64,000 bases of DNA from an uncultured Caldilineaceae bacterium (lineage in GTDB: Bacteria; Chloroflexota; Anaerolineae; 4572-78; J111). Below are positions 17,747-61,031 of the stretch, one piece after another. The notes beneath the pieces were generated by a model that made no database searches, was not told where the DNA came from, and saw only the letters and a list, made by a program, of their open reading frames with translations. Numbering within the stretch: the stretch's first letter is position 1; each line of letters starts with the position of its first letter. The position numbers were made by a program, and so were the translations under genes. The DNA is taken from positions 18,900-82,899 of the forward strand of contig CAZFCE010000016.1 in the NCBI GenBank assembly GCA_964517605.1, written 5' to 3'.

Positions 17747-17828
17747 AGAGTTAACCCTTTCTTAACTCAAGGGGTGTATACTATCCCCAAAGCTAGTTTG
17801 GGTAAAAGGCAAGCTTTAAGGAGCTTCA

Positions 17829-18476
17829 ATGGTATTATCATCAATGGTAACTTCGGCAAAACGGAGTGCAACAATCATCAAATATAATGATGAGGCTATT
17901 GCCCGGTGGGTTTCGCATGTTATTAGCCCGCATGTGGTTGGTGTGGTGATTACGGCCATAATGGCGTATCAGTACAGCGATAATCCGTGGGAAACCCTGG
18001 CGTGGCTGACAATGCTGTTGCCGTTAATTGTAATACCGCCGTTTGGCTACGTGCTTTGGCTGGTGCATCGGGGTACGCTGGAGGATATTTACATGCCCCG
18101 CCGTGAAACCAGAATGCGCCCGCTGGCGGTGATTATGGGCTGGCTGCTGGTGTGCTGGGGGTTAATCCGGTACTGGGGAGCGCCATCAATTGTTGAGTCT
18201 ATTTTGATTGTCAGCGTAATGCTGGTGGGGGCGTTAAGTTTTGTAACGCTGTTCTGGAAAATCAGCTTTCACGGCGCAACCGTTTCGGCGGCAGCCACGG
18301 CCACGGTTATTATGATTGGCAGCTGGACATGGCCGGTTATGTTACTGGTGCCGCTGGTGGGCTGGTCACGGATCAGACTACTACGCCACACCCCCCGGCA
18401 GGTTATTTTTGGCTCGCTGGTAGGGGCAACGGTTGCGCTGGTAGTGGTAAATAGCGTGCTGCTGCGCCTGCGCTGA
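17829..18476 (+). CDS. Integral membrane protein, weakly PAP2-like
   Basis: Six hydrophobic helices. SFHGA and SRIRLLRHTPRQV resemble PAP2 motifs C2/C3 (PSGH; SRxxxxxHxxxD) but are degenerate. Confidence 0.45.
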   Translation: MVLSSMVTSAKRSATIIKYNDEAIARWVSHVISPHVVGVVITAIMAYQYSDNPWETLAWLTMLLPLIVIPPFGYVLWLVHRGTLEDIYMPRRETRMRPLAVIMGWLLVCWGLIRYWGAPSIVESILIVSVMLVGALSFVTLFWKISFHGATVSAAATATVIMIGSWTWPVMLLVPLVGWSRIRLLRHTPRQVIFGSLVGATVALVVVNSVLLRLR

Positions 18477-18506
18477 TAAAAAAACGCAATTCCATTTAAA
18501 CCAAAA

Positions 18507-18530
18507 AGCGCCGGTTTTTTAACCGGCGCT
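18507..18530. terminator. Bidirectional rho-independent terminator between convergent genes
   Basis: agcgccggtt-tttt-aaccggcgct, a 10-bp perfect stem flanked by an A-run and a T-run. Confidence 0.85.
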
Positions 18531-18550
18531 TTTTTTATTGAGAAAAACAA

Positions 18551-19732
18551 CTACCGCCCCTGGATGTGCATGGGCATAATTACGTGGGTAAAGTGTTCAT
18601 CGCCAATGGGCCGGAACACGCCGGGGCTGGCCGAGGTGCTGGTTTCGAGCGCAAATTGCGGGCTATCAATAACGCTTAGCACATCAATGAGGTATTTGGC
18701 GTTAAACGCCACTTCAATGGCGTTGCCGTCAATCGAGGCGTCAATTTCGGTCACGTTGTCGCCCAGTTCGGCGCTGGTGGCCACCAGCGTAATGCGCCCG
18801 TTCATCAACTCGTCGCCGCTGGGCACAATATCCAGCCGCACAATATTGGCCGAATCGCGGGCAAACAAGTGCGAAATTTTTACGGCCTTTAAAAGACTGG
18901 CGGTATCAACCACACTGCGGGTGGAAAAACCCTGCGGAATAATGCGGTTGTAATCGGGAAAGTCACCTTCGATGAGTTGCGACACCAGTTCGATGTCTTG
19001 CAGGTGAAACAGAATTTGCCGCCGCGACGGGGTGATAATCAAATTGATGGGCTGTTCCTGGTCGCCGGAAATGCGCGCCAGTTCCAGCAGGGCGCGGGCG
19101 GGGATAATCAGGCTGGGCGATTTGGTCGCGCTGCCGTTCAACCCGATTTCGGCCAGCGTATCGGCCACGCTGTGGTTTAACGGCGTCGCCCGCACCGATA
19201 ACCGGAAACCGTCGGCGGCCACCATCGTCACTTTGTCGTCATCAAACTTAAGCAACACGCCGGTAAAAACCGGGCGGCTTTCATCGGTGGCGGCGGCAAA
19301 AACCACTTGCTTGATCATGGTGCGCAACGATTCGGGATCGAGTTTAATGGCCACATCGTTTTCGGTGGCGCTGGCTACCGCCGGAAATTCGTGCGCGTCT
19401 ATGCCTTTGATGTTTGATTCAACGCGCGCGCAACGCAGGTTGAGGGTTTGGGTGGCTTCATCAAGGTCCAGGTCAATCCGTTCCGGGGGCAGCGAATTGA
19501 CAAAATCGGCCAGCAGCCGGGCGGGAACGGTAATAGCGCCGGGCTGATCAACTTTTGCGCCAACCCAACAGTTGATACCAAGCTCAAAATTGTTGGCCGA
19601 AAGTTTCAACCGGTCGCCATCGGTGGCCAGTAACACGTTAGACAGAACGGGAAGGGTACTCCGGCTGGCCACGGCCCGGCCAACAATGCTGAGTCCTTTT
19701 GCCAGATTTTCTTGTAAACAGGAAACCTTCAT
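18551..19732 (-). CDS. dnaN: DNA polymerase III beta sliding clamp
   Basis: MKVSCLQENLAKGLSIVGRAVASRSTLPVLSNVLLATDG..., with three-domain clamp length (393 aa from ATG 19732) and C-terminus PMHIQGR. The listed upstream extension adds 16 aa with no RBS. Confidence 0.93.
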   Translation of the reverse strand: MKVSCLQENLAKGLSIVGRAVASRSTLPVLSNVLLATDGDRLKLSANNFELGINCWVGAKVDQPGAITVPARLLADFVNSLPPERIDLDLDEATQTLNLRCARVESNIKGIDAHEFPAVASATENDVAIKLDPESLRTMIKQVVFAAATDESRPVFTGVLLKFDDDKVTMVAADGFRLSVRATPLNHSVADTLAEIGLNGSATKSPSLIIPARALLELARISGDQEQPINLIITPSRRQILFHLQDIELVSQLIEGDFPDYNRIIPQGFSTRSVVDTASLLKAVKISHLFARDSANIVRLDIVPSGDELMNGRITLVATSAELGDNVTEIDASIDGNAIEVAFNAKYLIDVLSVIDSPQFALETSTSASPGVFRPIGDEHFTHVIMPMHIQGR

Positions 19733-37916: not shown

Positions 37917-39326
37917 TTATAGTTTCACCGGGGCAATTACATCCGGCAGCGCCGCCTTGAGCGCGGCCAGCAACGTTTTATCCTGCCGGGGCAAAACGGT
38001 GCGGGGATCAAATAAAATCCGGTCGTTTTCAATCCTGGCGATAACCGGCGGCAGGTTAACCGGCTGGCGCAGCCGCTCGGCCAGCGCAGTAACGGCATCG
38101 AGTGAAATGGCTAGCGCCCAGGTGGGCAGCGTTTGGCCGGGCAAACTGCCGCCGCCAACGGTAGACACCGTTTTAACAACCTTGAACGAAACCCGCGCCA
38201 GGCTGGGTTCTTTTTGCAGCGCCGTTTGCCAGGCGCGCGCTCGCCGGGCCAAACCGGCCGGCGCGGCGGACATCATTTGCCACACCGGGATTTCGGTGGT
38301 GGCCTTGTTTTCCCGGTAGGCCAGCAGCGTGGCCTGCAACGCCGCCAGCGTAATTTTATCAACCCGCAACGCCCGGATAAGCGGATGCTTTTTTAGTTTT
38401 TCAAGCAGCGGTTTGCGCCCCAAAATCAACCCGGCCTGCGGGCCGCCCAGCAGTTTATCGCCGCTGGCGGTAACAATGTCCACTCCGGCGGCCAGGCTTT
38501 CCTGGATGGTTGGTTCGTGGGCCAAACCAAAGGGAGTGGTATCCAGCAGCGTGCCAGAACCCAAATCTTCCATAAGCGGCAGGTTGTGCCGCCGGGCCAA
38601 ATCGGACAGTTCGGCCAGCGCCGGCTGCGCCGTAAATCCGCTAATGCGGTAATTACTGGGATGCACCGCCAACAGCAGCCCGGTTTGGCCCGGCACAATG
38701 GCCTGTTTGTAATCCTGAGTGTAGGTGCGGTTGGTGGTGCCCACTTCAACCAAGTTACAGCCCGATTGCGCCATAATCTCCGGCACTCGAAAGCCGCCGC
38801 CAATTTCAATCAACTGGCCCCGGCTGATAATCACCTCGGCGCCACGCGCCAGCGCCGAAAGCGCCAGCACCACCGCCCCGGCGTTGTTGTTGACCACCAC
38901 CGCCGCTTCGGCTCCGGTGAGCCGGCAGAGCAAATCGGCGGCGTGTACATACCGAGACCCGCGCCCGCCGGAGGTCAAATCGTATTCCAGATTTAAGTAA
39001 TCCGAGGCCGCCTGCTGCATGGCCAGTTTGGCCCGCTCACTGAGCAGCGCCCGGCCCAGATTGGTGTGAATAATCACGCCGGTGGCATTGATGACCGGCT
39101 GCAACGATGGCCGGATTTCTGCCGCAACGCGCCCCACCACCGCCGGCACCAGCGCCGCTTCTACCCCGGACGGTTGGCCGGCTAAAATTTGCTGCCGGAC
39201 CAGGTCGAGTTCGGCGCGGATGGCCGCCACTACCACGCGGTGGCCATGCACCGCCACCAGCGCCGCCAGTTCGGCAGTTTGGAGTAGTTTGTCAACGCTG
39301 GGCAAATTACGCAGTTCCGATTGCAT
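37917..39326 (-). CDS. selA: L-seryl-tRNA(Sec) selenium transferase
   Basis: LRNLPSVDKLLQ N-terminus, NNNAGAVVLAL, and SGDKLLGGPQAG (PLP-lysine); 469 aa. Confidence 0.88.
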   Translation of the reverse strand: MQSELRNLPSVDKLLQTAELAALVAVHGHRVVVAAIRAELDLVRQQILAGQPSGVEAALVPAVVGRVAAEIRPSLQPVINATGVIIHTNLGRALLSERAKLAMQQAASDYLNLEYDLTSGGRGSRYVHAADLLCRLTGAEAAVVVNNNAGAVVLALSALARGAEVIISRGQLIEIGGGFRVPEIMAQSGCNLVEVGTTNRTYTQDYKQAIVPGQTGLLLAVHPSNYRISGFTAQPALAELSDLARRHNLPLMEDLGSGTLLDTTPFGLAHEPTIQESLAAGVDIVTASGDKLLGGPQAGLILGRKPLLEKLKKHPLIRALRVDKITLAALQATLLAYRENKATTEIPVWQMMSAAPAGLARRARAWQTALQKEPSLARVSFKVVKTVSTVGGGSLPGQTLPTWALAISLDAVTALAERLRQPVNLPPVIARIENDRILFDPRTVLPRQDKTLLAALKAALPDVIAPVKL

Positions 39327-42459: not shown

Positions 42460-43407
42460 TTAAATGATAAATTTTGATAGCTGTTCGGCGATTTGCCGGC
42501 ATTGATGGCGAATCATCCCCAGTGGCACATTGGTGCTGAGGGCCAGCGACAACAAAATACCGTCGGCCAGGGTAAGGGTGTACAGCCGGTAGGCTCCGCC
42601 TTCGTGGAGGCTTTGGGTAAACCGCCCGGTCCGTTCGCCCAAAAATGTGGCGGCTTGCGCGGCGGCCTGCGTGCTTTGCGCCACCAGCACCGCCAAATCC
42701 AGGCATTCTTCCCGGCTGAGCATGCCGGCGTGGGCAATTAAATCCGCCCCGGCAATTAACAAAATGGCTTCGGCCCGCACCTCTCGATTTAAATCGCCCA
42801 GGTAGCGTAAAATCTCGTTTTCGCTGGCGCGCAAAAACCGAATGGTTTCTTGCGGCACCACCGGCGGAGCCAGCAAGTTGGTGTCTATTTCCAGCGCCGG
42901 CGGCGCAGAAACAGGCACGGGTGGTGCGGCGACGCTAACGGCGGCGGGCGGCGCTTCCTTTTCGGTGGCAACCGGCGCGGGGGCGCTTTTAGCCGGCGGG
43001 GTAAAGGCCGGCATTACTGTAGCCGAAGGCGTGCGTTGCCGGCTGCGGCCCAGAGCTTTTTCAACCAGATCGGGCAAATCGCCCACAAAAAACGGTTTGG
43101 GCAAAATACCGTTAATGCCCAACTTGCTGTAGGCATCCGGCAACGCCTGGCCAATCAAGGGAATCATCATTATTTTTACTTCGCCTCTGGTTTCGCGGAT
43201 GGCTTTTACCAGAATGCCGGGTTTCATATCGGTGATGCCCACATCAATAATAACCAGATCAAAACTTTGCTCAACCACAGCCAATAAGGCATCGCTCCCG
43301 GAATGCACGCAGGTGGCAATATATTGCCCGGAATTCTGCAATCCTTCTGCCAGCATTACACCAAAGCCTTCGTCGCTATCTACTACCAAAATGTTGGGCT
43401 TTACCAT
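42460..43407 (-). CDS. Response regulator: receiver domain + Ala/Pro linker + Roadblock/LC7 (MglB-like) domain
   Basis: Receiver NILVVDSDEG...FDLVIIDVGITDMKPG...GILPKPFF. C-terminal part ILRYLGDLNREVRAEAILLIAGADLIAHAGMLSREE...GGAYRLYTLTLADGILLSLALSTNVPLGMI has a Roadblock-like pattern. Confidence 0.7.
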   Translation of the reverse strand: MVKPNILVVDSDEGFGVMLAEGLQNSGQYIATCVHSGSDALLAVVEQSFDLVIIDVGITDMKPGILVKAIRETRGEVKIMMIPLIGQALPDAYSKLGINGILPKPFFVGDLPDLVEKALGRSRQRTPSATVMPAFTPPAKSAPAPVATEKEAPPAAVSVAAPPVPVSAPPALEIDTNLLAPPVVPQETIRFLRASENEILRYLGDLNREVRAEAILLIAGADLIAHAGMLSREECLDLAVLVAQSTQAAAQAATFLGERTGRFTQSLHEGGAYRLYTLTLADGILLSLALSTNVPLGMIRHQCRQIAEQLSKFII

Positions 43408-43520: not shown

Positions 43521-44567
43521 TTACTGTTTTTTGCCTTTTATAAAAACATAAACGGCAATTACCCCCAACGCCAAAACAAAAAATAACAAAATACCGCCTA
43601 AACTTAAAAAATTAAAGGCTGATGCCGGTTTGGGCAGCTCTTTGACCGGCCCGGCGGCGGTTATAACCGGCGTTGGGGCGATAGTGACGGTGGCAGTTGC
43701 GATTGCCGGCGGTGTTGGTGTAGGTAAAGCGGTTCGCGTGGGTTGCGCCGTGGCGGTGGGCAAGACGGTTGCCGCTGCCGCCGCCGCAGCCGGCGGAGTG
43801 GCGGGTTCTGCCGGTAATGGTTGCCCGGCCAGGTTTTCTTGTTCTGGCATTGGGGCGGACTCTAATTGAACGGACCCTTCTGCCGGCACTTCGACTGCCA
43901 GCGCCGGCGGCGCGGCGGCTGCCGCACTTTTGGCCACGGGCGCTGCCGGTGCTGCGCCGCCGACGGCATCTTGCGCCAACATCATCTCCTGGTTAGCGGT
44001 GATTGGCGCTGCCGGCGGCGCGGCAGCTGCCGCCGCTTCGGCTTTTTCCTCTATAACTGCTGTGGCCACGGCGGTGGGTTGCGCTTCGATTGATTTTTTC
44101 ATAACCGCCGGTTCGGTGGCCAACACTGCGGGCGCGGCAGGCGCTTTTGCTACCGTCTCCGCTGCTGCCTCTTTTTGTTGCGCCACCATTTGCGCCGGGG
44201 CGCTCTGGCTGCCCGAAAACTGCGTACCCCAAAAAAGCCCGCCGCCAACGGCTAAAACGCAGATTATTGCCGCCGCCGCGGCGGCCAATCCCCCTGCCCA
44301 GGCCGGTAGCCAAAAACGGCGTTTGGGCTGGGGTTGCACTTCGGTGGCGGTGAGCGTAAAGGGGCGCGGGGCCGGCATTACCGGCAGACTGGCCAACAGC
44401 GTCACCGTTTGCCGCAACGAGGCCAAATCTGCCTGCAATTCGGGCGATTCGGCCAGCGCAGAATCTACCCGCGCGCGCTCGGCGGCGGTCACTTCACCGT
44501 CCAGATAAGGCGATAGCAACTCCCGGATTTCTTCGATATTTGGTTGCTGAGGTGTATTTGTCGCCAT
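43521..44567 (-). CDS. Membrane-spanning anti-sigma factor (N-terminal anti-sigma domain, TM, Ala/Pro/Thr-rich ectodomain, C-terminal TM)
   Basis: ELLSPYLDGEVTAAERARVDSALAESPELQADLASLRQT is a typical RsiW/RskA-type N-terminus. TM FWLPAWAGGLAAAAAAIICVLAVGGGLFW. Begins 11 nt after the sigma-factor stop. Confidence 0.75.
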   Translation of the reverse strand: MATNTPQQPNIEEIRELLSPYLDGEVTAAERARVDSALAESPELQADLASLRQTVTLLASLPVMPAPRPFTLTATEVQPQPKRRFWLPAWAGGLAAAAAAIICVLAVGGGLFWGTQFSGSQSAPAQMVAQQKEAAAETVAKAPAAPAVLATEPAVMKKSIEAQPTAVATAVIEEKAEAAAAAAPPAAPITANQEMMLAQDAVGGAAPAAPVAKSAAAAAPPALAVEVPAEGSVQLESAPMPEQENLAGQPLPAEPATPPAAAAAAATVLPTATAQPTRTALPTPTPPAIATATVTIAPTPVITAAGPVKELPKPASAFNFLSLGGILLFFVLALGVIAVYVFIKGKKQ

Positions 44568-44578
44568 GATTGCTGCGT

Positions 44579-45178
44579 TTATTGCTTTCTATCTTCTAGA
44601 CGATATTGGCCGGGCAAAAGTTCCTGTTGCGTGAGCAAAAAATCGCGCAAGCGCCGCCGCCCCCGGTTTAACCGAGATTTAACCGTTCCCAACGGCTGTT
44701 CTATAATTTCGGCGGTTTCCAGGTAGCTTAGACCCTGCACGTCACACAAAACCACCACCACGCGCTGATCCTGCGGTAACTGGTTAATGCCCATTTGCAG
44801 CCACTCGGCCAGTTCGCCCCGGAGCATGCGCTCTTCGAGCGGCTCATCGGCATTCATCAGGCTGGCGCTGTGCTCAGGAGCCTCTTCTACCAAATCCTCC
44901 AGCGAAGTTGCCGGTCGGCGGTTGCTGTAGCGAAGGTGGTCGTAACAGGTGTTGGTCACAATGCGCAAAATCCAGCTTTTAAACGACCCGCCCTGGTATT
45001 GTCGCAACGATTTATACGCCTTTAAAAAGGCATCCTGGCAGGCATCGGCGGCGGCATCACTGGAGCCGGTAACGCGATAAGCCACGTTGTAGGCGGTGCC
45101 CTGGTAGGCCATTACCAACTGGTTAAAGGCCGACAGGCTTCCTTTTTGCGCTTCAGAAATTATGCGAAGTTCATCCAT
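44579..45178 (-). CDS. ECF (group 4) RNA polymerase sigma factor
   Basis: Region 2 (AFNQLVMAYQGTAYNVAYRVTG...DACQDAFLKAY) and region 4 HTH (QRVVVVLCDVQGLSYLETAEIIEQPLGTVKSRLNRGR). Confidence 0.9.
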   Translation of the reverse strand: MDELRIISEAQKGSLSAFNQLVMAYQGTAYNVAYRVTGSSDAAADACQDAFLKAYKSLRQYQGGSFKSWILRIVTNTCYDHLRYSNRRPATSLEDLVEEAPEHSASLMNADEPLEERMLRGELAEWLQMGINQLPQDQRVVVVLCDVQGLSYLETAEIIEQPLGTVKSRLNRGRRRLRDFLLTQQELLPGQYRLEDRKQ

Positions 45179-45219: not shown

Positions 45220-45248
45220 TTGACGTATAATCTTACATCAATTATACT
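45220..45248 (+). promoter_or_regulatory. Candidate promoter for tRNA-Leu (TTGACG-17 nt-TATACT)
   Basis: -35 at 45220-45225 and -10 at 45243-45248, with the tRNA 5' end at 45268. Confidence 0.6.
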
Positions 45249-45267: not shown

Positions 45268-45349
45268 GCCGGAGTGGCGGAACAGGCAGACGCGCGCGAC
45301 TCAAAATCGCGTGGAGAAATCCTTGTGGGTTCGATTCCCACCTCCGGCA
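45268..45349 (+). tRNA. tRNA-Leu (anticodon CAA), class II with long variable arm
   Basis: Acceptor gccggag/ctccggc with discriminator a. Anticodon stem cgcga/tcgcg with loop ct-CAA-aa. Variable arm ggagaaatcc. T arm gtggg-ttcgatt-cccac. CCA is not encoded. Confidence 0.92.
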
Positions 45350-45413
45350 TTGATTATAACACCATTCATTATGATGTGCTAGGGCGATGTAACTTCGCTC
45401 ACCGGGTAAGGTG

Positions 45414-45436
45414 AGGCCACCTCGTAGAGGCGGCCT
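45414..45436 (+). terminator. Candidate terminator after tRNA-Leu
   Basis: aggccacc-tcgtaga-ggcggcct (one mismatch) followed by ttaatttt. Confidence 0.4.
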
Positions 45437-45492
45437 TTAATTTTGAATTCAAGGGTTTGTTTTTTTTTAGTAGTTAGTTTGTTTTTGCGCAG

Positions 45493-46575
45493 ATGGTCAA
45501 AAAGAAAAAAAATCGTCGCGGGATAGACCGCCGGATACTGATTTTTGTATCAATTGCCCCGGTGGGGTGTTTGCTGGCCTTGTTGTTTGGGTTGGTGTTA
45601 GCCTGGTATCTGTTTCCCACCCGATTTGTGAATGCCCGGGTTTCGGATTTGTCACCGCAACACGCCGACGAAGTGGTTATTATGGCGGCGGCGGATTTTG
45701 CCAAAAACAAAGACATCAAACGGGCCGATGAAATTCTTGGCCAGCTCAATGTGCCCAACAAACCCCAGTTTGTGTCGCTGGTTGCCGAACGGATGATTCG
45801 CACCAACCGTGGCCCGGTTGACGATGATATAAAAGAAGTAGTACAACTGGCCGATGCGTTGGGAGTGAGCACCGTTTCTATGGTGGCCTATGTTTCAACG
45901 CCCACGCCCACCTTTACCCCGGTCCCACCCACACCCACCGCTACCAGCACCATCCCGCCCACTCCCACCGATACACCCACGCCCCCCGTTCCTACGCCCA
46001 CGGCCACTCCGGTAGCCACCGATACGCCGGTGCCGGTAGTTAACACGCCCGTGCGGAATACGCCCACCCCGGCTCCGCCCACCGACACGCCCACACCTGC
46101 CGCCACCGCTACACCCTCGGTTGATTTTGTTATTACTAAACAGCGGTTGTTGACCAAACAGGAAAACGGCGGCTGCGCCGGGAATCATAATATTTTTGTG
46201 GATGTTATTGACGCCAAAGGCAACCCCATCAAAGGGGTGCAACTTGGCGATGCCTGGAATAACCCCGGCCCGGTGACCGGCCACAAAGGGGATAACCTGC
46301 CCGGCCACGCCGAGTACGACCTGTACAAAAACGGCGGTTTTATGATCTTGGTAAAATCCGATCCCACCGCCGGACGCCCCGTAACCAGCCAAACCTCCGA
46401 ATTGCTCAGTTCCGATGACTGGAAAATCGGGATTCCCAGATTGATTGAAGCCGGTTACTGCCCCGACGAAGCCACCTGCAAAGTGTTATGGAACAGCGGC
46501 GTGTTTGGCGTTGGCAACAACTCGATTTGCTGGGGGCACTATTCCTGGGAAGTGGTGTTCCAAAGAACCTGGTAA
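45493..46575 (+). CDS. Paralogue 1 of an unassigned family: TM anchor + helical juxtamembrane domain + Pro/Thr linker + Cys-containing C-terminal domain
   Basis: TM ILIFVSIAPVGCLLALLFGLVLAWYLF. Helical domain ...AAADFAKNKDIKRADEILGQL...VVQLADALGVST. PT-rich 135-215. C-terminal domain VDFVITKQ...GGCAGNHNIFVDVIDAKGNPIKGV...CWGHYSWEVVFQRTW. Confidence 0.8.
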   Translation: MVKKKKNRRGIDRRILIFVSIAPVGCLLALLFGLVLAWYLFPTRFVNARVSDLSPQHADEVVIMAAADFAKNKDIKRADEILGQLNVPNKPQFVSLVAERMIRTNRGPVDDDIKEVVQLADALGVSTVSMVAYVSTPTPTFTPVPPTPTATSTIPPTPTDTPTPPVPTPTATPVATDTPVPVVNTPVRNTPTPAPPTDTPTPAATATPSVDFVITKQRLLTKQENGGCAGNHNIFVDVIDAKGNPIKGVQLGDAWNNPGPVTGHKGDNLPGHAEYDLYKNGGFMILVKSDPTAGRPVTSQTSELLSSDDWKIGIPRLIEAGYCPDEATCKVLWNSGVFGVGNNSICWGHYSWEVVFQRTW

Positions 46576-46602
46576 CAGGCTTTTGTTAGGAAAATCGGGA
46601 TA

Positions 46603-47655
46603 ATGCAAAATTTAAATTCCAAAATGATGATAATTATAGCGGCGGTAGTAGTGCCCGTTTTTTGCGTGGCCTTGATGATAGCCGGTGGGTTGGTCGGTTT
46701 TTTGGCTACCTCGTCCATTTCAGCCGCCGATACTGTTCCGTTTAATGGGCGCAGCCAGGAAGAAGTCGAGGCTGAAATTCTGAATATTGCCGCTGACTAC
46801 GCTAACACCTCGGATTTGGAAGCGGTGCACGCCCGGTTAACGGAACTGCATATTCCCAACGAAGCCCAATACATCTCCTTTATGGTAGATCGCTATATTC
46901 AAGAGAGGCGCGGGGCCGAAGATGCCGACACCAAAAACCTGTTTGGGTTGGCCCAGGCGTTGGGTTCCAGCACCAAATCAATGGTGTTGGCTTTAACCAC
47001 GCCCACGTTTACGCCCACGCCCACCCTCCCGCCTACTTCAACCCCAACTCCGCCGCCCACGGCTACACCCGTTCCTACCGAACCGCCCACTAACACGCCC
47101 ACGCCGGTGGTTCCCACCGATACGCCCGCTCCGGCGGCCACGGATACCCCGGTTCCGGCGGTAGCCAAAGTAGCGGCTCCGCCCACCAACACGCCCGAAC
47201 CCACCGCCACTCCGGAACCTACCAAACCGGCGGTAGATTTTGCCGTTGCCCAGGCTCTTATGGTACCCAACCCGGCTTACGGTAGTTGCCCCGGTTTGCA
47301 CAACATTTTTGTGACAGTGGTTGACGCCGCCGGCAACCCCCTCAATGGCGTAACGGTTGAAGATACCTTTAAAGCCGCGCCGCCGCATACTGCTGGCGAT
47401 AAAGGCCCCGGCAAACTGGAATATGATTTGTGGGATAACGGCTTTTCGTTGCAAGTAACCAAAAAAGCCGATGGTTCTCCGGCTACCAGTGAGCAAACCC
47501 CCAAACTCAGTTCCTGGGATGAAGACATCCCCAACGAATGGCTGATTCAGGCCAACTATTGCAAAGACATGGCCGACTGTGTTGAACGCAAAGGCCACAA
47601 TCAATTGTGCCGTGGCCATTATTCTTATCAGGTTATATTTAAACAAACTTACTAA
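46603..47655 (+). CDS. Paralogue 2 of the same family
   Basis: TM MMIIIAAVVVPVFCVALMIAGGLVGFL. Helical domain ...NIAADYANTSDLEAVHARLTEL...LFGLAQALGSST. PT linker. C-terminal domain VDFAVAQ...GSCPGLHNIFVTVVDAAGNPLNGV...CRGHYSYQVIFKQTY. Confidence 0.8.
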   Translation: MQNLNSKMMIIIAAVVVPVFCVALMIAGGLVGFLATSSISAADTVPFNGRSQEEVEAEILNIAADYANTSDLEAVHARLTELHIPNEAQYISFMVDRYIQERRGAEDADTKNLFGLAQALGSSTKSMVLALTTPTFTPTPTLPPTSTPTPPPTATPVPTEPPTNTPTPVVPTDTPAPAATDTPVPAVAKVAAPPTNTPEPTATPEPTKPAVDFAVAQALMVPNPAYGSCPGLHNIFVTVVDAAGNPLNGVTVEDTFKAAPPHTAGDKGPGKLEYDLWDNGFSLQVTKKADGSPATSEQTPKLSSWDEDIPNEWLIQANYCKDMADCVERKGHNQLCRGHYSYQVIFKQTY

Positions 47656-47670
47656 CCGGGCTAATAATGA

Positions 47671-48795
47671 ATGCACCGGCCAGATCATCAATCTGACCCA
47701 CCGTTAAATGAAAACTCCACTCCGGCCCGGCCCAAAAAACCGGCGCAGAGTGGTTCGGTACAGGTTGGTGACGCACCTTTAACAACCCAAACGCAAGGCG
47801 ACGCCGTTCGCCGCCCGCCGCTTACCCTGCGCAGCACTCCTCCCGGCAAAGGCGACTGGTTGTGGTGGCTGGTCAGTTTTCTCTTTGGAGTTTTGGTTGG
47901 CCTGGTTATGTCGCTGGGCTACGGCTGGATATTAGACCCGCGCCCGCAGCCGGTTACTCCGGCAGATTTACGGGCCGAGGACAAAGCCTTTTACTTGCGC
48001 CTGATTGCGCTGGCTTTTGCCAAAGACGGCAACCTGCAACGAGCGCAGGCCCGGCTCAATACTTTAAATAACCCGTCTGTGGCCGCCTTAACGGAACAGT
48101 ATATTAACCAGGAGCAGGATATTCGTGATATTAAAGCGCTGGTGGCCTTATCCGAGGCGTTGGGGCAAACTTCAAGCGTAATGGCTGCCTTTATTGTCAC
48201 GCCCACGCCACTGCCAACTTCTACCTTTACCCCCGCTCCCACACCCACTCCCCGGCCCACCAAAACACCCACGCCTAAAGCCTCACCAACGGCTACCGTT
48301 ACCAACACGCCTTCTCCCACTCCATCGGCTACACCTACCGCCAGTAACACGCCCACCGGCACCAGTACCCCCACCGTTACCAACACGCCCACAGTTACCC
48401 CTACCCCCACCGCCACCAGTACGCCCACGCCGGGGCCGGATTCGCCGTTTGGCCTGGCCCAATCGGAAATGTTGTGCGAGGCGGGCGATCATCCGGGGAT
48501 ACTCCGGGTGTATGTTCGGGATAGGCTGGGTGTCGGAGTGCCGGGCATCGGCATTGAAGTTACCTGGTCGGGCGGCAAAGACACGTTTTTTACCGGCTTC
48601 AAGCCCGAAATTGATCCCGGTTACGCCGATTTTTACATGTCACCGGCGCAGCGGTACGAGATAACGCTGCTCAACGTAAAAACTGCCGGCGAACTGCCAG
48701 ACATTGATATCAATAACCCATCGCTTTGTACCAACCTGCCCGCAAACACGTTACCATCGTGGCGAGTGGTTTTTCAACAAGGCGTAAAAAGATAG
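47671..48795 (+). CDS. Paralogue 3 (divergent) of the same family, with about 60 aa of extra cytoplasmic N-terminus
   Basis: TM WLWWLVSFLFGVLVGLVMSLGYGW. Helical domain ...LIALAFAKDGNLQRAQARLNTL...LVALSEALGQTSS. PT linker. C-terminal domain LCEAGDHPGILRVYVRDRLGVGVPGI...LPSWRVVFQQGVKR. Confidence 0.75.
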   Translation: MHRPDHQSDPPLNENSTPARPKKPAQSGSVQVGDAPLTTQTQGDAVRRPPLTLRSTPPGKGDWLWWLVSFLFGVLVGLVMSLGYGWILDPRPQPVTPADLRAEDKAFYLRLIALAFAKDGNLQRAQARLNTLNNPSVAALTEQYINQEQDIRDIKALVALSEALGQTSSVMAAFIVTPTPLPTSTFTPAPTPTPRPTKTPTPKASPTATVTNTPSPTPSATPTASNTPTGTSTPTVTNTPTVTPTPTATSTPTPGPDSPFGLAQSEMLCEAGDHPGILRVYVRDRLGVGVPGIGIEVTWSGGKDTFFTGFKPEIDPGYADFYMSPAQRYEITLLNVKTAGELPDIDINNPSLCTNLPANTLPSWRVVFQQGVKR

Positions 48796-48854
48796 GGGGA
48801 ACCGGTTAACCCGCCACCGGCGCGGTTAGCTGCCTGTCTCAACAACTCAACTCA

Positions 48855-48901
48855 TTTTGAACCGGCGTTTTTCTCACCATAAACCCGCCGCCGGTTCAAA
48901 A
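48855..48901. promoter_or_regulatory. 13-bp perfect inverted repeat (ttttgaaccggcg-21 nt-cgccggttcaaaa) abutting the RBS of paralogue 4
   Basis: Arms at 48855-48867 and 48889-48901. The RBS-like gagaagga begins at 48904. Confidence 0.6.
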
Positions 48902-48921
48902 TTGAGAAGGATGGATGTGCG

Positions 48922-51900
48922 TTGAAGGAACAATTTATAAAAAACACGCCGCTTTTTGGCGGTCTAACCGACGATGAACAACGCGCCGTTGGCAAGCGCA
49001 TGCGCCAGGAACAATACGCTTCTGGCGAAACGCTGTTTATAAAAAACACCGAAAGCGACACCCTCTACCTGATTAGTGAGGGCTGGGTTAAGCTTTCAAG
49101 CGATGACCAATCGCCGGTGGTGGCCAATTTAGGCCCCGGCAGCCTGCTGGGCGAAACCGATTTCTTTTCGGGCCGGCCCTACGCCATGACCGCCCGCACC
49201 GCCGGCGAAGTGACGGTTTGGTCGCTGCACCAAACCGATATGGCCAACCTGCTCGAAGAGCGCCCGGAGTTGGGCATCTATTTAGGGCTGGCTTTTGGCC
49301 GGGGGATTGTGCAGTACCAAAACTACCTGGCCGAGCGGCTGGCCGGCATTCCGCTGCTGCAAGATTTATCGGCGCGGGAACGCCGCCTGGTGGCCCAGTA
49401 CCTTTCGCCCCGGCGTTACGCCACGGGAACGGCCATCTACCGCAGCGGCGACGCGGCGGCGGGCTTGTTTTTTCTTGAAAGCGGCCGCATTCACCTGTTG
49501 GGCGACACCGATGAAGATTACACCGAACTGAAAGCCGGCGAAGCCTTTGGCGAAATGGCGGTTATTTCAAACATGCCGCACCCCAATACCGCCCAGGCCG
49601 CCAGCGACGTGATTGTGTGGCAACTCAGCCCCGCCGATTTTGCCGCGTTAACCCGCACCAATCCTTCCATAAAAACCAATTTAAGCCGTAACCTGCGCGC
49701 CCGGTTAAGCGCCACCGATCAATCTTACGCGGTGGCGGTTTTGGGCCGCATTGCCCTGTTTGCCGATTTGCCCCGCGCTGTTCTCACCGATATTGCCCGG
49801 CTGTTATTGTTGCGGCACGTGCCCGCCGGCGAACTCATTTTTAGCCAGGGCGACCCCGGCGACGCGATGTACATTGTAGATAGCGGCGCTGTTACCGCCG
49901 ATTCGCCGCACCAGCCCGGCCAGTTTAAACGCCGCTTAAGCGATGGCGACTACTTTGGCGAAACGGCGCTGCTCACCGGCAAAACCCGCGAATTTACCGC
50001 CCACGCCGCCAACAACACCAATTTGTGGTGCCTGTATCGCACCGATTTTGACAGCCTGCTGGTAAAACACCCGCAAATCAGCGTGGCGCTTAGCCAGGCG
50101 CTCCGCGACCGGCTGGCTGCCGCCGAAGATTACACGCCCGAACCGCACCTGCGCAAAATTGCGGCGGCGGGCGGCCTGTCGCGCACGCAACTCGATGAGC
50201 TTTCGGCCATGCTGCAACCCCGGCGTTACCAGGGCGGCAGCACCATCTACTACGAAGGCGGGGCCAGCGATGAAATGTATTTCATTGAGCGCGGCCAGGT
50301 TGAATTGTGGGCCAACTCGGCGCAGGGGCCGGTTTTGCTGGAAGCTCTGGGTGAAAGCGACTATTTTGGTGAAATGGCCCTGTTTTCGGGCCGATCCCAG
50401 TTGGGAACCGCCTACGCGCTGGTTGATACCCAAATTTGGGCGCTAACCAAACGCGATTTTGACGACTTTTTGAACCGCTACCCCAATTTGGGCGTGATTA
50501 TGAGCCGCATTTTGAGCGAGCGCATGGAGCAAACCATGTCGCAATTGCGCGGCGTGCCGACTCAACGCAGTTTGCCCGCGCCGGGAGCCGGTTCTGTACC
50601 GGCCCGACCCGGTTCGGCCCAATACGCGGTGCCGCCGGTGTATCCGGTTTCAAACCGACCACCCACCACGCCGGTTGCGCCGCCGCCGACCAGCCGCCCG
50701 CTCACGCCGGTCAATCGTCCCCCCGGAGCCATGCCGCCGGTGCGTTTGCGCCCGGTTGGCCCGCCGCCGGGGTCTCGCCCGGTGGCGGCGTTACCGCCCG
50801 GAAATTTGCCAGCCGGCCCCACGCCAGGCCACAGCCAGTTTACCCAACCCATGCCGCCGGTGGCTCCGCCTCCGCCGCCGGTTTCCCGGCCAATGGCGGC
50901 TCCGGGGCCAGCGCCGCAAACCCAGGCCATGCCGGCTGCTGCTCAACCGCTGCCGCCCCAACCCAAACGGGATAAACGCGAGAAAAATAAAAAGAAGAAG
51001 AATACCTCGGCCAAACCGTTGCCCCCGCCGCCGGCTATGGCCGCTTTGCCGCCGCCACCGGCGCAATCCGCCCCCACCGGCGCGGCGCAACCGGCTTCGC
51101 GTTTTGCGGCGGCTCGCTCGTACACCAACCGCAAAATTGAGCGCCAGCGCCGAAGCATTTCGGTGTGGTTTGCCAAACGCACGCTGGGCGCAAAGTTAAG
51201 ATTGCTGGCTATTGCTATCGCTTTAATCTGGGTGTGCGGGATTATGGCCCCATCGTTTATTATTAACGCGCTGGCCTCAACGTTTGCCGATGATGGTGCG
51301 TTGCCCGGCGATGCCCGCAGTCCGCTTGAACAAATGCGCGAAGAGGGAGCAGTTGGCGCGGCGGCGGTGTTGCCGTTTGTGGAAACGGCTACGCCCACGC
51401 CCACCGAAACGCCCACGCGCACGGCCACGCCTACCACTACGCCCACGCCCACCGAAACACCCATTCCCACCAGCACGGCCACGCCCACGTTTACGCCCAC
51501 GCCCACCGAAACGCCGACGCCGGTTTTTACGCCCACGCCCACCGAAACGCCGACCCGGGTTTTTACGCGCGTTCCGCCGACCCCCACCGATACGCCCACA
51601 CCCGAAGCCACGGCCACGCCCGCGGTGGATTACCGGGTAATGAGTATTCGTCAGCTTACGCCGTGTGAAAACGAAGGCAAGCACCATATCTTTATCCAGG
51701 TGCAGGATGCCACCGGCCAGGGGGTTAATGGCGTGCCGGTAAAAATAAAATGGGCCGAAACCAAAGACGGCTCGGTGATTGCCAATACCGAAACCAAGAC
51801 CAACCTCACTGGCCAACCCGAACCCGGCCACATTGACTTTGCCATGTTCAAGGGCAGCTACGTGGTTGAGGTGATGGGCGGATCCAGCGAAGTAACCAAG

Positions 51901-52005
51901 CCGATTACCCCCGACTACGGCACCAACGAATCGTGCGGGCCAAACTCGGTGGCCAACTCGCTGTTCCATCTGTCGTTCCAGGTTATTTTCCGGCGAACCT
52001 ACTAA
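48922..52005 (+). CDS. Paralogue 4: four tandem cyclic-nucleotide-binding (cNMP) domains + Pro-rich region + Lys-rich patch + single TM + Pro/Thr linker + the family C-terminal domain
   Basis: Four repeats of the CAP/cNMP pattern (e.g. [16 protein letters not shown]...[19 protein letters not shown]...LGETDFFSG; FGEMAVIS; FGETALLTG; FGEMALFSG). P-rich region at about aa 550-690, then [47 protein letters not shown] repeats. C-terminal [37 protein letters not shown]...[17 protein letters not shown] start. Confidence 0.8.
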
Positions 52006-52033: not shown

Positions 52034-52062
52034 ATCTCCCGGAAGCAGTCAGTCCGGGAGAT
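52034..52062 (+). terminator. Strong rho-independent terminator after the four-paralogue array
   Basis: atctcccgga-agcagtcag-tccgggagat followed by ttttgttt. Confidence 0.85.
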
Positions 52063-52124
52063 TTTTGTTTGCGCCCGGTTTGACGCTATACTATCGGCTT
52101 AAATACCCGCTACAGGAGTAACCC

Positions 52125-52379
52125 ATGACTGTGCCCGCCGATATATTAGCAATTTTACGTTGCCCCTATTGCGTTAGCGGCGATACGCGCAAACCAACCC
52201 CGGACCCCGGCCAACTAAAATTAACCGCCAACGGCTTGTGGCTGGTGTGCCAGGAAGCCGATTGCCGGCGCAAATATCCCATCCGCGAGGGGGTGCCGGT
52301 GATGCTGATTGACGAAGGCAGCAAATGGATGGCCACGTCCGTTGATAACTTGCCCCAACCGGGCAATCTGGTGAGCTAA
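52125..52379 (+). CDS. Trm112/YcaR-family small zinc-ribbon protein
   Basis: ILRCPYCVSG...CRRKYPIREGVPVMLIDE; 84 aa. Confidence 0.8.
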   Translation: MTVPADILAILRCPYCVSGDTRKPTPDPGQLKLTANGLWLVCQEADCRRKYPIREGVPVMLIDEGSKWMATSVDNLPQPGNLVS

Positions 52380-52381
52380 TT

Positions 52382-53722
52382 ATGAACCAACGCCAATACT
52401 TTTTTCTTTTTATTATAACAATGGCGCTGGCGTTGCTGGCGGCGCAGCCGTTGGCCGCGCAGGGCAACATTGAAACCGCCAACGCCAAATGGGAAAGTAA
52501 ATTCAGAGACCACCTCACCTTTACCATTGATGCCAAAAGTTCGGCGCAAATTAAGCAGGCGGAATTGTTTTACCAGATTGTGGGCGAGTTGGCCAGCGTG
52601 CGCAATGCCGCCGAATTTACGCCGGGCACGGCGATTACGGCCAAATTCACCGTTGATCAAACCAAGCCCGAAAATTATGTGCCGCCCGGCACCGAAGTGG
52701 AATACTGGTGGAAATTTGTTGACGCCAACGGCAATCAACTAAAAACCAACAAAGAAAAAATTACGCTGACGGATGAGCGTTACACCTGGCAGCAATTGCA
52801 AAACAACCGGCTAACCCTGTACTGGTATCAAGGCGACCAGAAATTTGGCGAAGCCCTGTTTCAACGGGCCAACGAGGCGCTCGATACCCTCAGCTCCGAT
52901 ATCGGCATAAAAATTGAGCATCCCATTAAAATTTTTATCTACGCCAGCCACACCGATTTGATGGACGCCATTAACGCCACCTCGCCGGAGTGGACCGGCG
53001 GGCAGGCTTTTTCTAAAAACGGGGTGGTGGTGATTGGCATTGAACCCACCGCCGACTCGCTGAAGTGGGGCTTGGGGGCAATGTCGCACGAAATGACGCA
53101 CCTGGTGGTGTACCAGGCCACCGATAGCCCATATGCCCAATTACCGCGCTGGCTTGATGAAGGCATTGCCGTGTACAACGAGGATCGCAACGGCCTGGTG
53201 CAGGATTTTCGGCTGGTGTTCGATCAGGCGGTGGCCAACAACCAGTTGATGACGCTGCGTACCCTGTCTAGCCCGTTCCCCCCCGACCCCAAAGAGGCTA
53301 ATTTGGCTTACGGCCAGAGCGGTTCGGTGGTTAAATTTATTGTGGATACCTATGGCCCCGACGCTATGGCCAAACTGCTCGCCATTTTTTCCCAGGGGGC
53401 TTTGTACGATGAGGCGCTGCAACAAGCCTTGGGCGTAGATACCGATGGGTTGGACAATGCTTTTCGGGCCAGTTTGCACTTGCCGCCGTTGCCCGGCAGC
53501 AAAACCGAAACGGCTCCGGCGGCCAATAGCGCCGGCGCTAAAGCCACCGTTGAGCCGGCGGCCCAACCGCAATCGGGCCTGGGCGAGGTGTCCGGCGCGG
53601 GCAAAGCCGCTCAACCCGAAACCACGCCATCACCGGCGGATAAACTGGCCAAACTGTTGCCCTGTTTGGCCGGAGTGTTGGCTTTGGTTTTTATGGGGGG
53701 GCTGGTGTATGGCCGGCGGTAG
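52382..53722 (+). CDS. Secreted/membrane-tethered zinc metallopeptidase (peptidase MA-like, HExxH)
   Basis: Signal peptide FFLFIITMALALLAAQPLAAQG, HEMTHLV plus downstream WLDEGIAVY (third ligand Glu), and C-terminal TM LLPCLAGVLALVFMGGLVYGRR. Confidence 0.75.
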   Translation: MNQRQYFFLFIITMALALLAAQPLAAQGNIETANAKWESKFRDHLTFTIDAKSSAQIKQAELFYQIVGELASVRNAAEFTPGTAITAKFTVDQTKPENYVPPGTEVEYWWKFVDANGNQLKTNKEKITLTDERYTWQQLQNNRLTLYWYQGDQKFGEALFQRANEALDTLSSDIGIKIEHPIKIFIYASHTDLMDAINATSPEWTGGQAFSKNGVVVIGIEPTADSLKWGLGAMSHEMTHLVVYQATDSPYAQLPRWLDEGIAVYNEDRNGLVQDFRLVFDQAVANNQLMTLRTLSSPFPPDPKEANLAYGQSGSVVKFIVDTYGPDAMAKLLAIFSQGALYDEALQQALGVDTDGLDNAFRASLHLPPLPGSKTETAPAANSAGAKATVEPAAQPQSGLGEVSGAGKAAQPETTPSPADKLAKLLPCLAGVLALVFMGGLVYGRR

Positions 53723-59957: not shown

Positions 59958-60968
59958 TTATTTGTTTAAATTGGTTAAAATATCTTCCGGGCCGTAAACC
60001 TTTACGCCGTAAACCTGCTGCATCAGTTTGGCCAGTTCCAGAGTGCGCTCGGCAATTGATTTTTGCTGCAAGCTGATAGAATTAATCAGGGCCAGGTTGG
60101 CGGCGGCGGCTCCGCCCAGCATGGCCTGTTTTTCCAGTTCGATGGCCAGATTTCGCAGGTAAATATTGATTTGTTTGATGATGCCCTCAATTTGGGTTTC
60201 GATCATCTGGATTGAAAAATCATCCAGGTTGGGCAAAATTGCGTTGTTGCCCCCGGCCTCGGCCTCGGCTTCCGGGGGAATGGCTACCGGCGCGGCGGCG
60301 GTTCGCGCTGCCTGGCCGCGCTGCACCTTTAAAAAATGTTCGGCGGCGGCAAACAGCCACTTTAGTTCGGTATTGATGCTATCCTGTTCGGCGGTGGTAA
60401 AGCAGCTCATTTGGGTAACAACTTTGGTTATTACCCCAATGCCGGTAGCCACGGCGCTCACTTCCTGCGCGGTGCCGCGCACGGTTCGGGCGGTGTTGCC
60501 GCGCCCGCGCCGGGCCGAACTATCTGCCGGAGTTGGCGCGGTGGCCGGCGGCGGGGTTTCTGCCGGTTGGCCCAGAACCTTTTTAATAACCGCCGCCAAC
60601 TTATCAAAATTCTCCGGCGAGGCGGTTTCTTTAAAATCAAGCCACTGAACGCCGGCCAGCGCGTATTCAAACATCACCGGGATTTCGGTGGGCCGCCACA
60701 GCAGCGGCACAATCGGTTTGGCATGGGTTTCGGCCAGGTCAACCTCTTTGCGGATGTTCGCCGATTGCACCGCGTCGGGTGAGAGCACCAGCACAAACAC
60801 CCGGCAATCCCTGATGCCCTCGGCAATGGAACTACGCCACTGGTCGCCCACTTCAATGCTTTCCTGATCAAACCAGGCTACAATGCCCCGGTTGGCCAGT
60901 TCGCGGTGCAGCCGGGTAACAAACTCAATATCTTTGCGGCGGTAGCTGATGAACACCTCAAATGGCAT
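59958..60968 (-). CDS. TIR-domain protein with Pro/Ala/Arg-rich linker and an unassigned helical C-terminal domain
   Basis: MPFEVFISYRRKDIEFVTRLHRELANRGIVAWFDQESIEVGDQW...VFVLVLSPDAVQSANIRKEVDLA follows the bacterial TIR_2 pattern, including the conserved Glu. The C-terminal ~190 aa is predicted helical by eye. ATG 60968 with RBS gggaga. Confidence 0.8.
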   Translation of the reverse strand: MPFEVFISYRRKDIEFVTRLHRELANRGIVAWFDQESIEVGDQWRSSIAEGIRDCRVFVLVLSPDAVQSANIRKEVDLAETHAKPIVPLLWRPTEIPVMFEYALAGVQWLDFKETASPENFDKLAAVIKKVLGQPAETPPPATAPTPADSSARRGRGNTARTVRGTAQEVSAVATGIGVITKVVTQMSCFTTAEQDSINTELKWLFAAAEHFLKVQRGQAARTAAAPVAIPPEAEAEAGGNNAILPNLDDFSIQMIETQIEGIIKQINIYLRNLAIELEKQAMLGGAAAANLALINSISLQQKSIAERTLELAKLMQQVYGVKVYGPEDILTNLNK

Positions 60969-61002
60969 GGTCTTCTCCCTGCAATGGAAAAATAGTGGCT
61001 CT

Positions 61003-61031
61003 ATTGTAACACAGGAATACCCTACCAACAA
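61003..61031 (-). promoter_or_regulatory. Candidate promoter of the TIR gene (TTGTTG-17 nt-TACAAT with TG extension)
   Basis: Minus strand reads ttgttggtagggtattcctgtgttacaat, about 35 nt upstream of ATG 60968. It overlaps the longer ORF start listed in the track, arguing against that start. Confidence 0.45.

Follow-up and report, generated by a model that had tools for sequence, protein, structure and literature searches.

Several described systems resemble parts of the locus analysed here, a tandem array of four membrane-protein genes (p1 to p4) in a 64,000-nucleotide stretch of contig CAZFCE010000016.1 from an uncultured Caldilineaceae bacterium (hereafter the window). In RsgI-SigI of Clostridium thermocellum, sigma and anti-sigma factors provide cell-surface signalling with extracellular sensor modules. 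SH3_3 is a family widely annotated as wall-binding, peptidoglycan hydrolases can be SH3-targeted, and the E. coli tufB operon is a tRNA-mRNA co-transcription unit with an internal attenuator. Anaerolineae and Caldilineae are abundant filamentous bacteria of sludge, sediments and hot springs, and to our knowledge their envelope biology is almost unstudied.

The array shares individual features with each of these systems, as well as with carboxypeptidase-regulatory domains and cyclic-nucleotide-binding regulators, and we find it to be a solid, conserved and uncharacterised lineage-specific system that is not rapidly diversifying. Its fold superfamily, the cyclic nucleoside monophosphate (cNMP)-binding domains of p4 and extracytoplasmic function (ECF) sigma/anti-sigma pairs are already known. 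As far as libraries and a literature search show, four things have not been described before: a strictly C-terminal four-cysteine domain (the C-domain), a juxtamembrane (JM) module, the combination of these across the membrane with cNMP, FHA or STAND modules, and a unit made of a tRNA gene, a structured leader and the array.

Four paralogous proteins and their shared modules

The genes p1 to p4 are four co-directional open reading frames (ORFs) on the + strand at 45493–52005, with intergenic gaps of 27 (p1-p2), 15 (p2-p3) and 126 nt (p3-p4), exactly as stated in the initial annotation of this DNA, which was made from the letters alone. The strong terminator that it placed at 52034 was also found in the sequence, as a hairpin spanning 52034–52062 with TTTTTGTTT after it; a consensus scan had missed it because the loop is about 9 nt long. 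The array and its parts are as follows (TM, transmembrane helix).

45493–46575, + strand: p1, 360 aa; K/R-rich cytosolic tail, TM at about aa 15–40, JM module, Pro/Thr stalk and canonical four-Cys C-domain
45625–45897, + strand: JM module of p1, from BLASTP against p2 and p3
46114–46572, + strand: C-domain of p1, canonical, four Cys
46603–47655, + strand: p2, 350 aa; TM at about aa 8–35, JM module, Pro/Thr stalk and canonical four-Cys C-domain
46726–46998, + strand: JM module of p2, from BLASTP against p1
47227–47652, + strand: C-domain of p2, canonical, four Cys
47671–48795, + strand: p3, 374 aa; cytosolic tail of about 60 aa, TM at about aa 64–90, JM module, long Pro/Thr stalk and reduced C-domain
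47935–48204, + strand: JM module of p3, from BLASTP against p1
48436–48792, + strand: C-domain of p3, reduced, two Cys; hhalign 97% against the family and against p4
48922–52005, + strand: p4, 1027 aa, TTG start; four cNMP-binding domains, Pro-/Lys-rich linker, TM at about aa 755–785, Pro/Thr stalk and reduced C-domain
51619–52002, + strand: C-domain of p4, reduced, two Cys; 1e-8 against an independent profile
52034–52070, + strand: intrinsic terminator closing the array, ATCTCCCGGA(9 nt)TCCGGGAGAT then TTTTTGTTT, read directly from the sequence

Each of the four proteins has one strongly hydrophobic segment with K/R-rich sequence before it. This K/R-rich sequence, together with the necessarily cytosolic position of the cNMP-binding domains, gives an N-in/C-out topology, and p1–p4 can all be read from their sequences as single-pass membrane proteins with the C-domain held outside on long Pro/Thr stalks. 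The initial annotation had assigned to all four an anchor, a Pro/Thr linker and a C-terminal domain of about 150 aa; these parts are indeed present in each, but the p4 anchor sits behind four cNMP-binding domains, which went unmentioned, and the p3 and p4 domains are shortened.

Sequence comparison confirmed that the C-domains of p1–p4 are homologous, those of p1 and p2 being canonical and those of p3 and p4 shortened two-Cys derivatives. By BLASTP, the C-termini matched at E values of 1e-30 (p1-p2), 2e-7 (p1-p4), 2e-5 (p2-p4) and 1e-3 (p3-p4). The most divergent copy is p3, whose C-domain was recovered profile-to-profile only: a profile of 19 p3 orthologues matched the family with an hhalign probability of 97.2% (E 4e-11) and the p4 type with 97.4% (E 1e-11), the second Cys and the terminal SWxVVFQQ strand included. 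The H134 region is missing from p3, and both p3 and p4 are without two of the four Cys. The proposed similarity among the four C-termini therefore stands up, resting on BLASTP for p1, p2 and p4 and on hhalign for p3, and so does the JM module said to be common to p1–p3 (BLASTP E 4e-13 for p1-p2 and 2e-5 for p1-p3). The opening motif quoted for the C-domain does not fit p3, although the terminal strand of p3 was aligned by hhalign.

Neither shared module has a counterpart in the libraries that we searched. When all four proteins were scanned, the C-domain and the JM module gave no Pfam or NCBIfam match at E ≤ 1 and no PADLOC model for either; neither had a PDB sequence match better than 0.02 (the best for the C-domain profile was an invasin, at E 0.024) or a Foldseek match in the PDB at E ≤ 1e-3. 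A literature search returned nothing on the C-domain family or the array locus. As far as these libraries and that search show, both modules have not been described before, which agrees with the initial annotation in placing them outside known families.

The same annotation had noted a loose likeness of the C-domain to carboxypeptidase-regulatory and transthyretin (TTR) folds, and structure prediction bears this out. An AF2 model of the C-domain (pLDDT 88.6, pTM 0.85) shows six strands, a helical segment inserted at residues 102–127 and a last strand at 145–151, and the predicted fold is that of a seven-stranded transthyretin-like beta-sandwich. Foldseek matched the model to the TTR domains of carboxypeptidases M, D and N and of teneurin with probabilities of 0.95–0.99 over 74–79 columns, at a root-mean-square deviation (rmsd) of 2.7–4.0 Å. 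The family profile also picks up CarboxypepD_reg/Big_1 repeat proteins, at profile positions of about 22–90 only, and the multi-repeat giants among its matches are proteins of this kind. PF13620 matches 2 of 14 aligned family domains (best E 3e-4); its gathering score of 32.3 bits is not reached by any p1–p4 domain, and none of them matches at E ≤ 1. The model thus points to a divergent beta-sandwich of the CarboxypepD_reg/transthyretin-like type as the C-domain core, into which a helical segment with four Cys is inserted in the canonical form.

The likeness to CarboxypepD_reg (PF13620), transthyretin-like and Big_1 domains lies in a core of about 75 residues, which superposes at about 3 Å rmsd on the C-terminal domains of carboxypeptidases M, D and N and on teneurin TTR domains; like CarboxypepD_reg, the C-domain carries the motif V-x-D-x-x-G-x-P-[LIV]-x-G-V. 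Unlike CarboxypepD_reg, the canonical C-domain contains some 55 inserted residues that include helices and four conserved Cys, has a loop of the form ENGGC-x-G-x-H and a final strand GHYSWEV-x-FQRT[WY], and is always protein-terminal and never tandemly repeated.

An exhaustive HMMER search with the C-domain profile, over 1.84 billion representatives, returned 1126 proteins at E ≤ 1e-3, of which 347 reached E ≤ 1e-10 and 63 reached E ≤ 1e-30. The domain ended 0–7 residues from the protein C-terminus in 129 of 129 full-length matches, and exactly at it in 99. Exactly four Cys were present in 107 of the 129 C-domains, at profile positions 21, 115, 121 and 131. The near-invariant residues are H134 (0.99), S136 (0.95), D33 (0.95), S91 (0.93), H25 (0.81) and E17-N18 (0.84–0.88), and the conserved polar set also takes in R11, Y135 and Q142-R143. 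From these patterns we infer that the four Cys of the canonical C-domain form two disulfides and that the conserved polar residues mark a putative functional surface.

Two further structural matches were rejected. The top Foldseek hit, an intradiol dioxygenase (4ilt), superposed with a TM-score of 0.34 and an rmsd of 10.6 Å and had no Pfam match even at E ≤ 10. Against a viral structure library the C-domain matched the generic sandwich core only; the sole match there below E 1e-3, a pectate-lyase-like one (7e-4), superposed poorly (rmsd 17.6 Å, TMq 0.27).

The JM module is modelled by AF2 as five helices (pLDDT 87.6). Its best Foldseek match had an E value of 0.16, to MA3/HEAT-like folds, and its likeness to TPR_19 and Cdc23 is weak and sub-threshold. 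Of 67 complete C-domain proteins, 46 carry it, and in most relatives a TM is followed by the five-helix JM module, SH3_3 and the C-domain. As in SH3_3 cell-wall proteins, an SH3_3 domain is found in many family members, lying between stalk and C-domain in 40 of 68 longer relatives, and the counterparts of p1 and p2 at one relative's locus (L031; loci are numbered with the prefix L) carry it. Unlike in SH3_3 cell-wall proteins, the domain is missing from p1–p4, and its partner in the relatives is no known amidase, peptidase or muramidase. Rare members have a cytosolic FHA domain or AAA_35+TPR in place of the cNMP-binding domains, and others are lipoprotein-like, with a signal peptide, a Pro/Thr linker and the C-domain. 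All named family members come from Caldilineaceae or Anaerolineaceae. Four metagenomic proteins of 128–146 aa (P0181–P0184) consist of a TM helix and the five-helix JM module alone, so the JM module is an independent unit that can exist without stalk or C-domain.

The cytosolic part of p4 is formed by four cNMP-binding domains (aa 1–545), which match PF00027 in four stretches above the gathering score (E 3.6e-77, 254.9 bits). This part also matches the tandem cyclic-nucleotide-binding (CNB) domains of PKA and PKG in the PDB, and inspection of the sequence showed that the FGE motifs are retained in domains 2–4. As predicted, p4 would therefore span the membrane with sensor-type domains inside and the shared C-domain outside. 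It resembles PKA/PKG regulatory subunits, CRP/FNR proteins and MloK1/SthK in its tandem CNB domains with FGE motifs; unlike all of these, it is without a kinase, helix-turn-helix or channel output and has instead a single TM, a stalk and an outside C-domain. The ribosome-binding site (RBS) of p4, AAGGAAGGA, and its TTG/GTG start are conserved. The gap between p3 and p4 ranges from 6 to 216 nt among loci, and because the RBS and start codon are its sole conserved parts, an internal promoter there was rejected and the gap is consistent with co-transcription. We found no cyclase among the window genes scanned. At L031, a gene for a GAF plus class III nucleotidyl cyclase protein (Guanylate_cyc; 17807–19447, − strand) lies directly after the array neighbourhood and is a possible source of the p4 ligand.

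Conservation and genomic setting

Using a single-sequence query, we found p1 orthologues at 30 genome loci, all from Chloroflexota of the class Anaerolineae. The full four-gene array is present in most Caldilineaceae loci; p1-p2 only are found at L011, L015 and L018, p1-p3-p4 at L025, L026, L028 and L030, and p1-p4 at L029 and L033. A p4-type protein is kept in the minimal two-gene version that stands beside sigma/anti-sigma genes. Median orthologue identity is 78% for the p1 C-domain, 77% for DnaA and 72% for the ECF sigma factor, and dN/dS is 0.09–0.19 for every module versus 0.09 for dnaA, values that are approximate, with dS near saturation. By these estimates the array modules are under purifying selection and the low-complexity stalks alone vary, contrary to the suggestion in the initial annotation that the system is diversifying. 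Its emphasis on proximity to the origin did not hold up either, as adjacency to dnaA is confined to closer relatives and lost in distant loci.

The genes and signals that flank the array are the following.

43521–44567, − strand: zf-HC2 anti-sigma gene (zf-HC2, Pfam)
44579–45178, − strand: ECF sigma factor gene (Sigma70_r2/r4_2, Pfam)
45220–45248, + strand: sigma70-type promoter TTGACG-N17-TATACT, 10/12 in a consensus scan; both hexamers kept at 16 loci, the distant L026 and L030 among them
45268–45349, + strand: tRNA-Leu(CAA), from ARAGORN and Rfam RF00005 (56.2 bits), between the sigma gene and p1
45353–45361, − strand: ATTATAnCA box, invariant in the alignment and the exact reverse complement of the extended −10 element TGnTATAAT
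45382–45445, + strand: structured leader of two small hairpins and a terminator hairpin (45413–45437) with a U-tract, about 48 nt before the p1 start
52125–52379, + strand: Trm112-like zinc-ribbon gene, a conserved downstream neighbour within Caldilineaceae
52382–53722, + strand: membrane-anchored Peptidase_MA_2 gene with a HEMTH motif, 2 nt after the Trm112-like gene

The upstream pair is an ECF sigma/class I anti-sigma unit, in which a sigma factor with Sigma70_r2 and r4 only adjoins a zf-HC2 membrane anti-sigma. This pair adjoins the array in 19 of the 26 loci with enough upstream sequence, as well as in L031 and L033, and is kept at 43–48% C-domain identity (L026, L029, L030, L033). An envelope system linked to sigma/anti-sigma genes, as first suggested, is plausible on this evidence, although the linkage is not universal; the array does not, however, diverge directly from the sigma operon, since a tRNA gene and a terminator intervene. 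As in ECF sigma/anti-sigma surface signalling (e.g., RsgI-SigI), a zf-HC2 anti-sigma and an ECF sigma factor stand beside proteins with binding-type ectodomains. Unlike in RsgI-SigI-type systems, the array ectodomains are on separate proteins, the outer part of the anti-sigma is low-complexity Ala/Pro sequence, the linkage is limited to those 19 of 26 loci, and no sigma-dependent promoter was identified.

The zf-HC2 anti-sigma itself has a TM at about aa 93–115 and a long low-complexity stretch rich in Ala and Pro, and its extreme C-terminus carries another hydrophobic segment; in L033 two proteins take its place, a zf-HC2 one of 67 aa and a Thr/Ala-rich one of 555 aa. Co-oriented with the sigma/anti-sigma genes and conserved in Caldilineaceae loci is a gene for a receiver-domain protein (42460–43407, − strand) with an Ala/Pro linker and a C-terminal domain of about 130 aa that is Roadblock/LC7-like by eye and has no Pfam support.

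In nearly every locus, those without the sigma genes and the most distant ones included, the tRNA-Leu gene immediately precedes p1, a tighter linkage than that of the sigma genes. The promoter at 45220–45248 drives the tRNA and possibly, by read-through, the array too. Loci that have the sigma operon retain the ATTATAnCA box, and the sigma-less L005, L006, L016, L019, L024 and L025 have lost it; because retention of the box tracks the operon, we propose it as a probable candidate promoter of the ECF sigma operon, the position of which suggests that the sigma-operon transcript would run antisense across the tRNA-Leu gene. Elsewhere in the window, a 96-nt tRNA-Trp(cca) reported by ARAGORN at 12225–12320 (− strand) lies inside an ORF and below the Rfam gathering threshold and is probably a false positive. 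SelA is encoded at 37917–39326, so a tRNA-Sec might be expected; none was detected.

Between the tRNA and p1, the leader has a conserved RNA structure. RNAalifold gave 21 pairs, with 95.8% of cells paired versus 49–60% when the partners were slid, and eight covarying pairs versus 3.6 ± 1.2 in shuffles. Helix 3 accounts for five covarying pairs, with 98.2% of cells paired, and is followed by an invariant TTTTG; the G-U pairs show that it is the + strand that folds. With a covariance model, 23 sources gave a single match per locus, immediately before p1; nine of these sources lay outside the training set. The leader corresponds to no Rfam family. At L013, L014 and L018, p1 starts about 13–20 nt after the U-tract, which leaves no room for a promoter between the leader terminator and p1, so the array there is most simply expressed by read-through or attenuation. 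Reading the leader by eye, with no systematic search made, we recognised no alternative antiterminator pairing. The leader may be a candidate attenuator of the array, or simply the terminator of the tRNA. As in tRNA-mRNA units such as E. coli tufB, a strong sigma70 promoter is followed here by a tRNA, then by a conserved terminator hairpin and protein genes; unlike in those units, co-transcription of the array is a prediction from sequence features, and no antiterminator structure was found.

Downstream, the synteny of the Trm112-like and Peptidase_MA_2 genes extends to L003, L005, L006, L008, L009, L014 and L031, and this pair could have a role in processing the stalked proteins. Further along the window, a gene for a TIR-domain protein (59958–61031, − strand; TIR_2 E 1e-26), which is matched by the PADLOC ThsB, SAVED-TIR and PDC-S66 models, is possibly a defence gene and seems to have no connection with the array.

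Possible functions of the array

We tentatively favour the explanation that the array encodes a wall-ligand-binding surface complex coupled to cyclic-nucleotide and often to ECF sigma signalling. The array would then be a lineage-specific cell-envelope complex of the class Anaerolineae of the Chloroflexota, in which canonical (p1, p2) and reduced (p3, p4) C-domain copies form a hetero-complex and the C-domains bind a cell-wall or outer-polymer component. Through p4, the state of this surface complex would be tied to cytosolic cAMP/cGMP, in either direction, and in most genomes the unit would work with the adjoining ECF sigma/anti-sigma pair as an envelope-sensing module. Expression would come from the tRNA-Leu promoter region and be throttled by the terminator-containing leader. 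A wall ligand is proposed because 40 of the 68 longer relatives have SH3_3, and signalling because of the cNMP, FHA and AAA_35+TPR fusions, the sigma pair at 19 of 26 loci, the p4-type protein in the minimal version and the cyclase at L031.

Several observations weigh against this explanation. The proteins p1–p4 are themselves among those without SH3_3, and cNMP binding by p4 is deduced from family membership alone. The composition of the array varies (p1-p2, p1-p3-p4, p1-p4), and at 7 of the 26 loci unrelated genes take the place of the sigma pair, which together make an obligatory four-part complex or an obligatory coupling to sigma unlikely. Inspection upstream of p1 revealed no ECF-type −35/−10 elements. 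The structure searches match the generic sandwich core only and carry little functional information, and the conserved His, Ser and Glu residues could equally mark an active site. The ligand, the partners and the transcript assigned to the array are all deductions from sequences and models.

If those residues do form an active site, the C-domain would be an extracytoplasmic enzyme, for instance one that remodels the wall or an exopolymer, with p1 and p2 active and p3 and p4 regulatory pseudo-enzymes. The family-wide near-invariance of H134, S136, S91, D33, H25 and E17-N18 speaks for this, as do the order of SH3_3 and C-terminal domain in the 40 relatives, which recalls SH3-targeted peptidoglycan hydrolases, and the loss of the H134 region from p3 and of two Cys from p3 and p4, a pattern of active and inactive paralogues. 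We nevertheless consider an enzyme unlikely, as the domain has no sequence or fold likeness to any hydrolase, transferase or oxidoreductase, the dioxygenase match being poor (TM-score 0.34, rmsd above 10 Å); D33 and G36 are part of the V-x-D-x-x-G-x-P motif that is generic to such sandwiches, folds of this class are typically found in modules for binding or spacing, and an even number of Cys points to disulfides and not to a nucleophile. The proteins might instead be purely structural tethers or adhesins that run from the membrane to the outer wall, sheath or S-layer, with the sigma and tRNA synteny inherited but uncoupled and the cNMP-binding domains tuning localisation or turnover only. A long Pro/Thr stalk between an anchor and a terminal globular domain is classic wall-spanning anatomy, the array persists at the 7 of 26 loci where the sigma linkage is lost, and stand-alone C-domain proteins of the lipoprotein type occur in unrelated contexts. 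This alternative is possible, if somewhat unlikely, given the repeated transmembrane fusion of C-domains to cytosolic modules (four cNMP-binding domains, FHA, AAA_35+TPR) and the sigma/anti-sigma genes that are still adjacent at 43–48% C-domain identity.

An anti-phage function, with p4 as a Pycsar-like effector activated by cyclic nucleotides, is suggested by the PADLOC PycTIR, TIR-effector and PycC models, which match p4 at E 1e-20 to 1e-28. These matches are confined to the CNB portion (profile positions of about 18–146), with no TIR or cyclase catalytic region, and p4 departs from the architecture of Pycsar effectors, which have a single CNB domain plus TIR or multiple TMs and stand beside PycC: its four CNB domains, one TM and ectodomain are unlike PycTM and PycTIR. 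No cyclase is present among the window genes scanned, searches of phage and plasmid sequences gave no match to the array, and the locus forms a syntenic block that is stable on the chromosome and evolves under purifying selection. We regard a defence role as highly improbable. A more elaborate version of wall sensing would make the array a transmembrane device peculiar to filamentous Anaerolineae, in which a hetero-complex of canonical and degenerate C-domains reads a wall or septal polymer, CNB occupancy of p4 converts or receives that signal, and the anti-sigma/ECF sigma pair is fed in turn. Surface signalling would then be gated by cyclic nucleotides and have no enzymatic output domain, and the leader would be a previously undescribed regulatory RNA that sets expression; taken as a whole, we consider this a long shot.

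The locus defines two uncurated modules, a TTR-like C-terminal domain, probably disulfide-braced, with hundreds of representatives and a five-helix JM module, and a recurrent architecture that links both through the membrane with cytosolic parts of the cNMP, FHA or STAND type. Family models of the domain-of-unknown-function type are warranted for the two modules, and the leader is a candidate RNA family. If the C-domain binds a wall polymer, the array would provide a handle on envelope sensing and organisation in Anaerolineae and Caldilineae and a rare case of cyclic-nucleotide sensors tethered to an ectodomain.

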